Shown here one piece after another: positions 41 through 5,840 of a DNA stretch of 7,103 nucleotides (position 1 is its first letter; each line of letters starts with the position of its first letter). Where the stretch lies: the IMG/VR virus record IMGVR_UViG_2600254997_000006, positions 1 through 7,103 of that record. The stretch is one strand, 5' to 3'. Origin of the DNA: a virus (lineage: Duplodnaviria; Heunggongvirae; Uroviricota; Caudoviricetes). The notes beneath the pieces were generated by a model that worked only from the letters and a program-made list of their open reading frames with translations, made no database searches and was not told the origin of the DNA. The translations under genes and the position numbers were made by a program.

Positions 41-784
41 ATGACACAGACAGAATCAGAGATTCTGGCGCACGCCCGGCGATGTGCGCCAGCGGAGTCG
101 TGCGGCTTCGTGGTGAGAACGCCGGAAGGGGAAAGATATTTTCCCTGCGTGAATATCTCCGGTGAGCCGGAGGCGTATTTCCGGATGTCGCCGGAGGACT
201 GGCTGCGGGCAGAGATGCAGGGTGAGATTGTGGCGCTGGTCCACAGCCACCCCGGTGGTCTGCCCTGGCTGAGTGAGGCTGACAGGCGGCTGCAGGTGCA
301 GAGCGATTTGCCTTGGTGGCTGGTCTGCCGGGGTGAGATTCATAAATTCCGCTGTGTGCCGCATCTTACCGGGCGGCGCTTTGAGCACGGGGTGACGGAC
401 TGTTACACGCTGTTCCGGGATGCTTATCATCTGGCGGGGATTGAGATGCCGGACTTTCATCGTGAGGATGACTGGTGGTGTAACGGCCAGAATCTCTATC
501 TGGATAATCTGGAGGCCACAGGGCTGTATCAGGTGCCGTTGTCAGCGGCGCAGCCGGGCGATGTGCTGCTGTGCTGTTTTGGTTCATCGGTGCCGAATCA
601 CGCCGCAATTTACTGCGGCGACGGCGAGCTGCTGCACCATATTCCTGAACAACTGAGCAAACGAGAGAGGTACACCGACAAATGGCAGCGACGCACACAC
701 TCCCTCTGGCGTCACCGGGCATGGCACGCATCTGCCTTTACGGGGATTTACAACGATTTGGCCGCCGCATCGACCTTCGTGTAA
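41..784 (+). CDS. K: Tail tip assembly protein K, with an N-terminal JAMM/MPN metalloprotease-like domain and a C-terminal NlpC/P60 (C40) cysteine peptidase-like domain
   Basis: 247-aa ORF. HSHPGGLPWLSEAD fits the JAMM motif H-x-H-x7-S-x2-D, and AESCGFVV upstream supplies the expected conserved Glu. GVTDCYTLF followed by NHAAIY and LLHH looks like an NlpC/P60 Cys/His core. The sequence is near-identical to lambda K as I recall it. An alternative start at ATG 185 (MSPEDWL...) has a GGAGG ~13 nt upstream and gives the 199-aa length I recall for annotated lambda K; ATG 41 has no obvious Shine-Dalgarno and may be translationally coupled to the upstream gene. Confidence 0.9.
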   Translation: MTQTESEILAHARRCAPAESCGFVVRTPEGERYFPCVNISGEPEAYFRMSPEDWLRAEMQGEIVALVHSHPGGLPWLSEADRRLQVQSDLPWWLVCRGEIHKFRCVPHLTGRRFEHGVTDCYTLFRDAYHLAGIEMPDFHREDDWWCNGQNLYLDNLEATGLYQVPLSAAQPGDVLLCCFGSSVPNHAAIYCGDGELLHHIPEQLSKRERYTDKWQRRTHSLWRHRAWHASAFTGIYNDLAAASTFV

Positions 785-1329
785 AAACGGGGGCCGAAGC
801 TATCCGTGCGCTGGCCACACAGATCCCGGCGTTTCGTCAGAAACTGAATGACGGCTGGTATCAGGTGCGCATTGCCGGGCGTGATGCAGGCGAAACCGAA
901 TTATCTGCCCGTCTTAATGAGCCGCTGGCAAATGGTGCCGTGATCCACATCGTGCCGCATCTGGCGGGAGCTAAAAGTGGCGGTGTGTTTCAGGTGGTGC
1001 TGGGGGCGGCGCTGATTGCGGTGGCATGGTGGAACCCTGTGGGCTGGCTGGGTGCCGCGGCTGTATCGGGCATGTATGCGGCAGGGGCCAGTATGATCCT
1101 GGGTGGTGTGGCCCAGATGCTGGCACCGAAAGCCCGGACGTCCACAGCGACCAGCACGGATAACGGTAAGCAGAACACCTATTTCTCATCACTGGATAAC
1201 ATGGTTGCCCAGGGCAATGTTCTGCCTGTTCTGTACGGTGAAATGCGCGTGGGGTCTCGTGTGGTTTCTCAGGAGATCAGCACGGCAGATGAAGGGGACG
1301 GTGGTCAGGTTGTGGTGATTGGCCGCTGA
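682..1329 (+). CDS. I: Tail assembly protein I
   Basis: 215-aa ORF whose N-terminus MAATHTLPLASPGMARICLYGDLQRFGRRIDLRVKTGAEAIRALA and C-terminus TDNGKQNTYFSSLDNMVAQGNVLPVLYGEMRVGSRVVSQEISTADEGDGGQVVVIGR match lambda I as I recall it. It has a central hydrophobic Gly/Ala-rich segment. It overlaps the 3' end of K by 103 nt in a different frame, as in lambda. GAGAGG lies ~11 nt upstream of the ATG. Confidence 0.9.
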   Translation: MAATHTLPLASPGMARICLYGDLQRFGRRIDLRVKTGAEAIRALATQIPAFRQKLNDGWYQVRIAGRDAGETELSARLNEPLANGAVIHIVPHLAGAKSGGVFQVVLGAALIAVAWWNPVGWLGAAAVSGMYAAGASMILGGVAQMLAPKARTSTATSTDNGKQNTYFSSLDNMVAQGNVLPVLYGEMRVGSRVVSQEISTADEGDGGQVVVIGR

Positions 1330-1347
1330 TGCAAAATATTTCATGTG

Positions 1348-1378
1348 AAACCGCCTCCGGGCGGTTTTGTCGTTTATG
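1348..1378 (+). terminator. Intergenic stem-loop between I and J: 8-bp stem, 4-nt loop, T-rich tail; terminator- or attenuator-like
   Basis: AAACCGCC (1348-1355) pairs perfectly with GGCGGTTT (1360-1367) around loop TCCG, followed by TGTCGTTT. The T tract is interrupted, so this may be a weak terminator or RNA-stability element rather than an efficient terminator. It lies immediately upstream of the J Shine-Dalgarno GGAG (1378-1381). Confidence 0.35.
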
Positions 1379-1389
1379 GAGCATGACGA

Positions 1390-4300
1390 ATGGGCAAAGG
1401 AAGCAGTAAGGGGCATACCCCGCGCGAAGCGAAGGACAACCTGAAGTCCACGCAACTGCTGAGTGTGATTGATGCCATCAGCGAAGGGCCGATTGACGGT
1501 CCGGTGGATGGATTAAAAAGCGTGCTGCTGAACAGTACGCCGGTGCTGGACAGTGAGGGGAATACCAATATCTCCGGTGTCACGGTGGTGTTCCGGGCTG
1601 GTGAGCAGGAGCAGACTCCGCCGGAGGGATTTGAATCCTCCGGCTCCGAGACGGTGCTGGGTACGGAAGTGAAATACGACACGCCGATCACCCGGACCAT
1701 CACGTCGGCAAACATTGACCGACTGCGTTTTACCTTCGGTGTGCAGGCACTGGTGGAAACCACCTCAAAGGGGGACAGGAATCCGTCGGAAGTCCGCCTG
1801 CTGGTTCAGATACAACGTAACGGTGGCTGGGTGACGGAAAAAGACATCACCATTAAAGGCAAAACCACCTCACAGTATCTGGCATCGGTGGTGGTGGGTA
1901 ACCTGCCGCCGCGCCCGTTCAATATCCGGATGCGCAGGATGACGCCGGACAGCACCACAGACCAGCTGCAGAACAAAACGCTCTGGTCGTCATACACCGA
2001 AATCATCGATGTGAAACAGTGCTACCCGAACACGGCACTGGTCGGCGTACAGGTGGATTCGGAGCAGTTCGGCAGCCAGCAGGTGAGCCGTAATTATCAT
2101 CTTCGCGGGCGCATTCTGCAGGTGCCGTCGAACTATAACCCGCAGACGCGACAATACAGCGGTATCTGGGACGGAACGTTAAAACCGGCATACAGCAACA
2201 ACATGGCCTGGTGTCTGTGGGATATGCTTACCCATCCGCGCTACGGCATGGGGAAACGTCTTGGTGCGGCGGATGTGGATAAATGGGCGCTGTATGTCAT
2301 CGGCCAGTACTGCGACCAGTCAGTGCCGGACGGCTTTGGCGGCACGGAGCCGCGCATCACCTGTAATGCGTACCTGACCACACAGCGCAAGGCGTGGGAT
2401 GTGCTCAGTGATTTCTGCTCGGCGATGCGCTGTATGCCGGTATGGAACGGGCAAACGCTGACGTTCGTGCAGGACCGACCGTCGGATAAGGTGTGGACCT
2501 ATAACCGCAGTAATGTGGTGATGCCGGATGATGGCGCGCCGTTCCGCTACAGCTTCAGCGCCCTGAAGGACCGCCATAATGCCGTTGAGGTGAACTGGAT
2601 TGACCCGAACAACGGCTGGGAGACGGCAACAGAGCTTGTGGAGGACACGCAGGCCATTGCCCGTTACGGTCGTAACGTCACGAAGATGGATGCCTTTGGC
2701 TGTACCAGTCGGGGGCAGGCACACCGCGCCGGGCTGTGGCTGATTAAAACAGAACTGCTGGAAACGCAGACCGTGGACTTCAGCGTGGGTGCTGAAGGGC
2801 TTCGCCATGTACCGGGCGATGTCATTGAAATCTGCGATGATGACTATGCCGGTATCAGCACCGGCGGGCGCGTGCTGGCGGTGAACAGCCAGACCCGGAC
2901 GCTGACGCTCGACCGTGAAATCACGCTGCCATCCTCCGGCACCACGCTGATAAGCCTGGTTGACGGGCAGGGTAATCCGGTGAGCGTGGAGGTTCAGTCC
3001 GTCACCGACGGACTTAAGGTGAAAGTGAACCGGGTTCCTGACGGCGTTGCCGAATACAGCGTGTGGGGGCTGAAGTTGCCGACGTTGCGTCAGCGCCTGT
3101 TCCGCTGTGTGAGTATCCGTGAGAACGATGACGGCACGTATGCCATCACCGCTGTGCAGCATGTGCCGGAGAAAGAGGCCATCGTGGATAACGGGGCGCA
3201 CTTTGACGGCGACCAGAGCGGCACGGTGAATGGTGTCACGCCGCCAGCAGTGCAGCACCTGACCGCAGAAGTCACCGCAGACAGCGGGGAATACCAGGTG
3301 CTGGCGCGCTGGGACACGCCGAAGGTGGTGAAGGGGGGGAGCTTTATGCTTCGCCTGACCGTGGCAGCGGATGACGGCAGTGAGCGGCTGGTCAGCACGG
3401 CCCGGACGACGGAAACCACATACCGCTTCAGGCAGCTGGCGTTGGGGCGTTACACGCTGACAGTCCGGGCGGTAAATGCCCGGGGACAGCAGGGCGATCC
3501 GGCGTCGGTATCGTTCCGGATTGCCGCACCGGCAGCGCCGTCACAGATTGAGCTGACGCCGGGCTATTTTCAGATAACCGCCACGCCGCATCTTGCGGTT
3601 TATGATCCGACGGTACAGTTTGAATTCTGGTTTTCTGAAACGAAGATTTCAGATGTCTCACAGGTGGACAAATCTGCCCGCTATCTTGGTACGGCACTGT
3701 ACTGGGTAGCCTCCGGCCAGAATATTAAGCCGGGCCATGATTATTACTTTTATGTTCGCAGTGTGAATACCGTTGGCAAATCGGCATTCGTGGAGGCTGT
3801 CGGCCAGCCGGGTAATAATCCTGAAGAGTATCTCAATTTTTTTGAAGGGAAAATAAACAGCACCCTGCTGGGGCAGGAGCTGAATGATCGTATTAATGCC
3901 TCTGCATTGCGCAGTGAAGTTGAGCAACTGGAGGATGAGGTCAATCAGCGACTGGAGAGTGATATTGCCGGGGTGACCCAAAAAATCGGGGAAACTGAAA
4001 ACAGCCTCACGCAGCTGGTTGCTAAAAAAAATGATGAGCAGTCACTGGCCATATCCCAGGTGAGTCAGAAAGTGGACAACGTCAGTAGCGAACTCACGCA
4101 AACGGTCAGTCAGAGTAATGAGGAGAATGCACGCCAGATTGCGCAGGTTCGTCAGTATGTGGATGAAAAAAGCAGTGAAATCATCTCGACGACAGACAAA
4201 AAACTGGGCGAGCAGGAAGCAACAATCCAGCAGATACAAAAGGTTCAGACAGACACCAGTAATAACCTGAACAGTATGTGGGCCGTGAAACTGCAGCAGA

Positions 4301-5013
4301 TGCAGGATGGTCGCCTTTACATTGCGGGTATCGGTGCCGGTATTGAGAATACCCCTGACGGTATGCAGAGTCAGGTGCTGCTGGCGGCAGACAGGATTGC
4401 GTTCATTAATCCGGAGAACGGTAACACCACTCCAGCACTGGTCACGCAGGGGGGACAGACGTTTATCAATGAAGCGCTGATTAAGACCCTTATTGCTCCC
4501 ACAATTACCAGCGGTGGCAGTCCTCCGGTATTTTCCCTGACATCAGACGGAAAGCTGACTGCTAAAAATGCGGATATCAGTGGCAGTGTGAATGCGAACG
4601 CCGGGACGCTCAACAATGTCACGGTAAATGAAAACTGTACGATTAAGGGCATGCTGGAGGCGACCCAAGTCAGAGGGGATTTCGTTAAAGCTGTATCCAA
4701 ATCATTTCCGAAACAGGCTGGTACGTGGGGTAACACGGAAACACCAAACGGGACGGTTACAGTCACCATCAGCGATGATCATAACTTTGACCGTCAAATC
4801 ATTATTCCGCCCATTATCTTTAACGGAATAGCGTATAGCTATCCGGGAAGTGGTAATAACCCGGGAGGTACAAGTTACACGGGTTATGGTTTTGAAGTTC
4901 GCAAAAACGGTGTATTAATCGCATCCAGAGAAACTAAAGGGGCCATTCCCGGTAGCTACAGTGCGGTTATTGATATGCCGAGTGGCAGGGGGAAGCGTCA
5001 CTCTGGAGTTTAA
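1390..5013 (+). CDS. J: Host specificity protein J (central tail fibre / tail tip protein); frame as it stands ends prematurely at TAA 5011-5013
   Basis: 1207-aa ORF with GGAG 8 nt upstream of ATG 1390. The N-terminal ~800 residues ([47 protein letters not shown]...) are near-identical to lambda J as I recall it. It contains an FN3-like segment (...[24 protein letters not shown]...[27 protein letters not shown]) and a long heptad-like Gln/Glu/Ser-rich segment at ~3830-4300. The extreme C-terminus is displaced to another frame (next feature). Confidence 0.92.
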
Positions 5014-5107
5014 GATTTTCCAGAAAGGCAATCAGGGGGCAGGCAATATCACCGACTGTACGGTGATTGTGACCAAAAAAGCCGCTTCCGGCATCAGTAT
5101 TCGTTGA
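4994..5107 (+). other. J: Displaced C-terminal coding segment of J, in a frame offset by one nucleotide from the main J frame
   Basis: Read from 4994 in the shifted frame, the sequence gives [37 protein letters not shown] before a TGA at 5105-5107. This parallels the lambda J C-terminus as I recall it (...MPAGRGNVILTFTL...VMVIKKQALGISVV). The main frame reads ...[15 protein letters not shown] then stop. The junction is the GGGGGAA tract at 4988-4994. Confidence 0.7.
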
Positions 5108-5128
5108 AATTGTTATAACCCATATAAG

Positions 5129-5152
5129 GGCACCAGAAATGGCGCCTTTTTT
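5129..5152 (+). terminator. Weak terminator-like hairpin plus T6 tract downstream of J and upstream of lom
   Basis: GGCACC (5129-5134) and GGCGCC (5141-5146) form a 6-bp stem with one central A-C mismatch around loop AGAAAT, followed by TTTTTT (5147-5152). The imperfect stem keeps confidence low. Confidence 0.3.
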
Positions 5153-5177
5153 ATTGTCAGAAAAGCGAGAGGTAATT

Positions 5178-5780
5178 ATGCGTAAATTATGTGCTGTTAT
5201 TCTGTCCGCAGTAGTCTGGCTGGTTGCCGCTGGTACGCCAGCGAGCGCAGCAGAGCATCAGTCCACACTAAGCGCCGGGTATCTTCAGACCCATACTGAT
5301 ATGCCAGGCAGCGATGACCTGAAGGGCATTAACGTGAAATACCGTTATGAATTTACGGACACGCTGGGGCTGGTGACGTCATTCAGCTATGCAGGAGACA
5401 AGAATCGCCAGCTTACCCGTTACAGCGATACCCGCTGGCATGAAGATTCCGTGCGTAACCGCTGGTTCAGCGTGATGGCGGGGCCGTCTGTACGCGTGAA
5501 TGAATGGTTCAGCGCGTATGCGATGGCGGGTGTGGCTTACAGCCGTGTGTCGACTTTCTCCGGGGATTATCTTCGCGTAACTGACAACAAGGGGAAAACG
5601 CACGATGTGCTGACCGGAAGTGATGACGGTCGCCACAGTAACACGTCTCTGGCGGGGGGGCTGGCGTGCAGTTTAACCCGACCGAATCCGTGGCCATTGA
5701 TATTGCTTATGAAGGCTCCGGCAGTGGCGACTGGCGCACTGACGGTTTCATCGTGGGTGTCGGTTATAAATTCTGATTAG
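5178..5780 (+). CDS. lom: Lom outer-membrane protein (Ail/OmpX/PagC-family 8-stranded beta-barrel), a moron / lysogenic-conversion gene; reading frame disrupted near the 3' end
   Basis: Translation from ATG 5178 (GAGAGG ~7 nt upstream) gives [36 protein letters not shown]..., a signal peptide with an A-x-A cleavage motif followed by sequence near-identical to lambda Lom as I recall it. After the G7 tract at 5654-5660 the frame yields ...[18 protein letters not shown]...INSD, whereas the adjacent frame (5663-5776) yields [41 protein letters not shown], a canonical OMP C-terminal beta-strand ending in Phe. The ORF-track start at 5139 is an upstream in-frame ATG inside the hairpin/T tract with no Shine-Dalgarno. 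Confidence 0.85.
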
Positions 5781-5803
5781 CCAGGTAACACAGTGTTATG
5801 ACA

Positions 5804-5829
5804 GTCCGCCGGTTCAGGCGGGCTTTTTT
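5804..5829 (+). terminator. Rho-independent terminator downstream of lom
   Basis: GTCCGCC (5804-5810) pairs with GGCGGGC (5817-5823) as a 7-bp GC-rich stem with one G-U wobble around loop GGTTCA, followed by TTTTTT (5824-5829). It lies immediately upstream of the stf Shine-Dalgarno GAGG and ATG 5841. Confidence 0.7.
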
Positions 5830-5840
5830 GTGAGGTGAAT

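Follow-up and report, generated by a model that had tools for sequence, protein, structure and literature searches.

A one-base insertion in the central tail fibre gene J of a lambdoid prophage in Escherichia coli E851/71 displaces the end of the receptor-binding domain

The J gene of a lambdoid prophage in Escherichia coli E851/71 carries one additional G in a short G run near its 3' end; the reading frame is displaced at this point and the last part of the C-terminal receptor-binding domain (RBD) is lost from the product, while relatives of the prophage have their J broken by other single-base changes. We consider it most likely, with a probability of about 0.55, that the extra G is genuine and arose recently by strand slippage, selection no longer acting on the tail genes of this prophage. 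The lesion is either ordinary prophage decay or a sequencing error, of the same kind as the frameshift that NCBI already flags in the orthologue of strain E2348/69, and there is nothing in it outside known biology and no new mechanism.

The stretch of DNA analysed here (the window, 7,103 bp) comprises contig ALNX01000073.1 in full, from the assembly GCA_000754045.1 of E. coli E851/71, an enteropathogenic (EPEC) strain. The tail genes of a lambdoid prophage follow one another on this contig in the order K-I-J-lom-stf, and the I-like protein is identical to that of phage cdtI (BAF63350.1). ALNX00000000 is assigned to E. coli E851/71 in a published list of strains and accessions (PMC3897749). The following features were located in the window:

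41-784, plus strand: K-like tail tip gene with C40 peptidase, 247 aa (open reading frame; orthologous CDS annotated in E2348/69, 434 and lambda)
682-1329, plus strand: I-like tail assembly gene, 215 aa (called gene with PF06805; overlap with K as in lambda)
1390-5013, plus strand: main frame of J (tip attachment protein, central tail fibre), 1207 aa (open reading frame, Pfam, match to 8IYK)
3333-3339, plus strand: G7 tract within J, in frame in the window (alignments to relatives)
3811-4170, plus strand: extra helical-shaft segment of J (alignment gap against lambda J)
4024-4031, plus strand: A8 tract within J, in frame in the window (alignments to relatives)
4988-4992, plus strand: G5 tract, the frameshift site, one G more than the G4 of the otherwise identical allele (sequence and alignments)
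4994-5107, plus strand: 3' end of J, displaced into the +1 frame, with 37 codons before the stop (translation; about PF12421 profile positions 96-135)
5157, plus strand: private extra T in the J-lom spacer (missing in all 8 relatives covering the site)
5178-5780, plus strand: lom, Ail/Lom outer-membrane protein, 200 aa (called gene)
5803-5834, plus strand: terminator-like hairpin and T run 3' of lom (consensus scan; 434 has a terminator annotated at the same place)
5841-5939, plus strand: 5' end of stf (side tail fibre), stop after 32 codons (translation)
5872-5897, plus strand: 13-bp tandem duplication, ACGGCACAGGAAA twice, which frameshifts stf (sequence and relatives)
5965-7103, plus strand: rest of stf, running off the contig end (called gene and translation)

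The break in J falls in the G run at 4988-4992, where the codons read GGC AGG GGG AAG CGT, and the product consists of 1201 native residues followed by the foreign KRHSGV. Where the window reads GGCAGGGGGAAGC with five G, cdtI, EC1515, F9792 and two further contigs (L013 and L023) read GGC AGG GGA AGC with four. The alignments revealed two allele types at this site among relatives, both of them in frame: GGT GGT GGT AGC (G-G-G-S) in E2348/69, A25, G749 and phage 434, and GGC AGG GGA AGC (G-R-G-S) in cdtI, EC1515 and F9792. The window allele belongs to the G-R-G-S type with one more G, and lambda J has its GRG motif on a CGGGGAA string (CGG GGA) at the equivalent place, as the window type does. 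The original prediction had placed the end of the main J frame at 5013 and the cause in a 1-nt length change of the G tract; both points were confirmed, the latter by the G4 of L013 and the other nearest alleles. Its estimate of about 38 residues lost or replaced was right as to the loss itself, the exact figures being 37 residues lost and six foreign ones gained. An extra A at 4987, the removal of which would restore GGC GGG GGA (G-G-G), was rejected as the inserted base, since the nearest alleles read GGC AGG GGA.

The closest J relative of the window is found on L013, a 5.05-Mb contig of the independent assembly GCA_901482685.1. Compared over window positions 892-5142 (the J part is 3.7 kb), the two differ by no substitution and in two places only, both of them lengths of G runs: G6 in L013 against G7 in the window at 3333-3339, and G4 against G5 at 4988-4992. 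Since L013 is identical save for these runs, the mosaic J allele of the window is genuine and the extra G is a private +1. The correspondence of G5 to G4 in otherwise identical alleles is far beyond chance, and the event is confirmed as the insertion of one G into a G4 run.

This insertion was seen nowhere else. When the 211 bases surrounding the site were compared with 5,426 complete E. coli genomes, 2,829 places matched, the best of them being 99.1% identical and one base shorter; five G at the site were absent from the best matches of these places, so that a homologue ending naturally at the position of 5013, an outcome that would have spoken against a lesion, did not come to light. The exact G5 DNA pattern was present in none of the genome, metagenome and viral contig collections, and exact-protein look-up placed the 1207-aa J on a single contig, the window's own. 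After correction of the frame J has 1238 aa, the same length as the intact J of strain A25 (P0005), and this corrected protein had no exact match in a collection of 15 billion proteins.

The part of J removed by the shift is well defined. The +1 frame from 4994 to 5107, which had been proposed to resemble the authentic J C-terminus, is identical in 37 of 37 residues to the C-terminus of the intact J of A25 and G749, and the expected continuation of C-terminal homology in the shifted frame was thereby borne out. Six Pfam families are found in J above their curated cut-offs (FNIII-A_GpJ, Phage-tail_3, Ig_J, Ig_J_second, Phage_Tail_Tip and Ig_GpJ_C). PF12421 (Tip attachment protein J, C-terminal receptor binding domain) is matched over positions 1-134 of 135 in the intact P0005 and over 1-95 of 135 in the window ORF; positions 96-135 of this domain are removed by the shift, and instead of a complete RBD in one reading frame the window has its remainder in the +1 frame. 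In a single-sequence AlphaFold model of the RBD, which is of low confidence (mean pLDDT 51.5), the last 37-40 residues or so form two long strands.

The gene was identified as gpJ by its domain series, by its homology to a solved gpJ (lambda gpJ, 8IYK, E = 0) and by its position between I and lom/stf. Additionally, its fibre and RBD region is homologous to the solved structures 8XCJ (E = 1e-143) and 9WCA (E = 3e-151). Lambda gpJ (NP_040600; PDB 8IYK, 8XCJ/8XCK) is nearly identical to the window J over the printed alignment 1-836 and has the same fibre and RBD architecture; it differs in that its RBD is only 36% identical, binds LamB, and is accompanied neither by the long shaft insert nor by a frameshift. 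Another close comparator is J of phage 434 (OL657226, CPT_434_21), the host-range determinant of a phage that uses OmpC: gene order K-I-J-lom-stf and domain series are shared, and the frame-corrected RBD of the window is 92% identical to it (126/137 residues, the lost segment included), whereas 434 J is an intact protein of 1137 aa and the window J has about 100 extra shaft residues and the frameshift. The lost end had been taken for the receptor-binding region as in lambda; the assignment to the receptor-binding region stood, but after frame correction the RBD is of the 434 type and not lambda's own.

The RBD of gpJ is the C-terminal Ig-like domain, of which four bottom loops enter the receptor, and the fibre gene of phage 434 swapped into lambda redirects the phage to OmpC (PMC11101478). 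Because the RBD is 92% identical to that of 434, OmpC rather than LamB is the likely receptor, and an intact J of the window would likely bind it.

The J of the window is about 100 aa longer than that of lambda, owing to the segment between residues 836 and 944, which coincides in position with lambda's alpha-helical shaft and appears as a gap in the alignment. Of the 5,426 complete E. coli genomes, 30 have this shaft insert, and among 50,697 phage records it gave only two matches, both 74% identical; a longer central fibre is to be expected from it. J was intact in all seven shaft-insert strains that were checked (A25, 2015C-4136CT1, 377323_2f, JNE23-011, FHI_NMBU_03, Z1323HEC0016 and Z1323HEC0300). 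Judged by its sequence, the window J belongs to the lambda family and combines an RBD of the 434 type with a long helical shaft that is rare.

According to the explanation that we propose, the extra G in the G4 run shifts the frame of J 37 codons upstream of its natural stop. The hub remains whole in the product, which also keeps its fibronectin-type domains, its long helical shaft and its beta-prism fibre and has KRHSGV in place of roughly the last 30% of the C-terminal Ig-like RBD. A trimeric Ig-like domain without its last strands should fail at folding or at receptor binding, since about 30% of it is lost and six foreign residues are gained; the truncated J should thus cost the phage its adsorption, and particles made from the E851/71 prophage would not adsorb.

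Decay of the same gene was observed in several relatives. Between window positions of about 1200 and 4600, only the changes G7 to G6 and A8 to A7 separate the J of E2348/69 from the window; this J is annotated as frameshifted in three assemblies. This pseudogene (E2348C_RS28990, in a prophage carrying nleB2/nleC) is an orthologue with the same flanking genes and was likewise inactivated by single-base changes in homopolymers, but it is broken at these two tracts and not at 4988, where its C-terminal patch reads GGT GGT GGT. The frameshifting G6 at the 3333 tract is shared by E2348/69, L013, L022, L023 and L024, and the second frameshift, A7 at the 4024 tract, by E2348/69, L022 and L023. G6 is also implied by J fragments of 586 aa in O55:H6 strains, as well as by six of six contigs with an identical 655-aa N-terminal fragment of the G6-broken J, which was confirmed at the DNA level in the four places that were fetched. 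In a further contig (AKYH01000095.1) J is split into 600 and 640 aa by an added C at the equivalent of window position 3174, GGAGAAA(C)GAGG, which is not a homopolymer. Furthermore, two E2348/69-like relatives have the tape-measure gene, which lies upstream of J, divided into two or three ORFs (L022, 555-3610; L023, 556-3610). From these breaks in J and in the tape-measure gene it follows that the prophage lineage is demonstrably decaying through single-base changes without accompanying substitutions.

Written as tract states at 3333 and 4024, E2348/69 and L023 have G6 with A7, L013 has G6 with A8 and the window has G7 with A8; near-identical J alleles of EPEC1-type strains vary almost solely in homopolymer length, and no copy of the exact J allele of the window other than its own is in frame at 3333. 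The way in which the C-terminal patch is distributed relative to A7 and A8 requires recombination or homoplasy among these prophages, hence the G7 of the window can simply be ancestral.

We infer that the extra base is real, as against a sequencing error; sister strains break J at other homopolymers, and real decay is plausible. The strongest competitor, which we rate somewhat below even odds, is an artefact of sequencing or assembly, in which a homopolymer was overcalled and the strain really has G4 (or G6 and G4, as its relatives do), J being then either intact or broken at 3333. The G5 allele is private to one 7.1-kb draft contig from a repeat-rich prophage region, it lies in a homopolymer, and the J frame downstream of it is perfectly preserved, all of which a homopolymer error would produce; the lack of sequence decay beyond the shift fits a recent mutation equally well. 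All that sets the contig apart from its closest relatives is a handful of single-base insertions (+G at 3333, +G at 4988, +T at 5157), and such an insertion-only pattern would be the expectation for an insertion-prone sequencing chemistry. G7 at 3333 occurs in this allele on the window's contig alone, against the G6 implied by the six contigs with the 655-aa fragment. Against an artefact, the longer runs of the contig's J (G7, A8, T7 and G6) are in frame and match the intact A25, the A8, T7, G6 at 4449 and four A6 agree with relatives, and a G4 run extended to G5 is short for a consensus error. The homopolymer frameshifts in the J of E2348/69 are documented and real, and they too came without accompanying substitutions. 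A 13-bp duplication in stf, seemingly as private as the extra G, is moreover present in an independent contig, NKAA01000142.1 (L012); owing to this second assembly at least that private-looking lesion is real.

A chimeric consensus of two resident J alleles was considered on account of the combination of patch and ATT in the window, which does not occur in complete E. coli genomes. It was rejected: L013 has the same combination, and because no allele has GGGGG at the site a chimeric path cannot create G5. The mosaic C-terminal patch is unchanged in L013 and L023. Between 4650 and 5400 the mosaic character of the contig was apparent, the sequence being identical to E2348/69 up to about 4600 and then continuing as a cdtI-like patch over the 3' end of J.

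Readings in which the broken frame serves a function fare far worse. Programmed frameshifting and a contingency switch, taken jointly, are very improbable; about as improbable is the composite view that the three tracts toggle tail-tip function in EPEC1 prophages, with E851/71 'on' at the site where all its closest relatives are 'off' and 'off' at a new one, or that G5 is read through by low-level +1 slippage to give native J. That the tracts of J (G7 at 3333, A8 at 4024, G4 at 4988) act as reversible on/off switches, or contingency loci, for the production of infectious particles is given scant credence on its own. Near-identical alleles without substitutions do differ in length at all three tracts, and the window is indeed 'on' at 3333, unlike its closest relatives with their 'off' state there, and 'off' at 4988. 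Phase-variable loci, however, typically have tracts of at least 7 with both lengths among close relatives; the upstream G7 and A8 tracts do vary in this way among relatives, but G4/G5 falls well short of the tract lengths known from phase-variable genes and G5 was encountered once only. The tract states are fixed within each assembly, no genome in the 15-billion-protein collection has the exact allele with all tracts in frame, a sign of return to function is thus lacking, and neutral decay accounts for the same tract pattern.

Least believable of all is the restoration of full-length J at a low level by +1 ribosomal slippage, for instance of tRNA-Gly, which would shift from GGG onto GGA once the rare AGG codon has been read and give ...GRGSVTLEF.... 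The local sequence AGG GGG A, in which one +1 slip yields the native peptide, is its sole support, apart from the fact that the insertion creates AGGGGG, a Shine-Dalgarno-like string of the type used at the prfB +1 site; no slow codon, rare codon or stop occupies the A site after the slip position, and the AGGGGG arrangement occurs on a single contig. Programmed frameshifting lacks support, as none of the homologues has a two-frame arrangement: every relative examined reads through the site in a single frame and none needs a shift.

Should the extra G be real, as the preferred reading of a slipped-strand mutation has it, a classic EPEC strain would carry a prophage incapable of producing particles that adsorb. 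Genes for type III effectors adjoin these tail genes in the orthologous prophage of sister strains, and a real base would thus add a further case in which the decay of tail genes has fixed an effector-carrying prophage in the chromosome. Should it be an error, the J of this contig needs a check at the level of reads before it is called a pseudogene. EPEC1 J alleles that differ almost only in homopolymer length illustrate how fast tracts inactivate phage genes that are not selected. It should be emphasized that the significance beyond annotation is small.

A fibre gene for host recognition broken by a small frameshifting lesion is also known from laboratory lambda (PaPa), in which stf is split into orf-401 and orf-314, reportedly by a 1-bp deletion. 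There the lesion lies in the dispensable side fibre, whereas in the window it affects J, the central fibre, which is essential, and stf is disrupted in addition by the 13-bp duplication. This duplication shifts stf after 15 native codons and leads to a stop at 5937-5939; with one of the two copies removed, an open stf frame extends from 5841 as far as the contig end. Lambda, 434, cdtI, E2348/69 and A25 lack the duplication, as do all 11,065 places compared in complete E. coli genomes. The contig L012 that shares it, of assembly GCA_002461505.1 and by lom and stf the closest relative, begins at window position 5066, 74 nt beyond the G5 site, and it is the only one besides the window with the exact Lom protein.

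In the spacer between J and lom the extra T at 5157 lies just 3' of a T6 run, and none of the 8 relatives covering the site, L012 among them, has it; it may point to insertion-type sequencing errors in the assembly and was counted above on the side of an artefact. The consensus scan gave no terminator in this spacer, where phage 434 has one annotated. The 5' region of lom on the contig is unlike that of most relatives, with 36 differences per 200 nt. The collagen-like Gly-X-Y part of stf contains two long ORFs on the minus strand (6077-6937, 286 aa; 6544-7080, 178 aa); lambda orf206b and cdtI orf22 are their analogues, and they are probably by-products of a repetitive GC-rich coding sequence.
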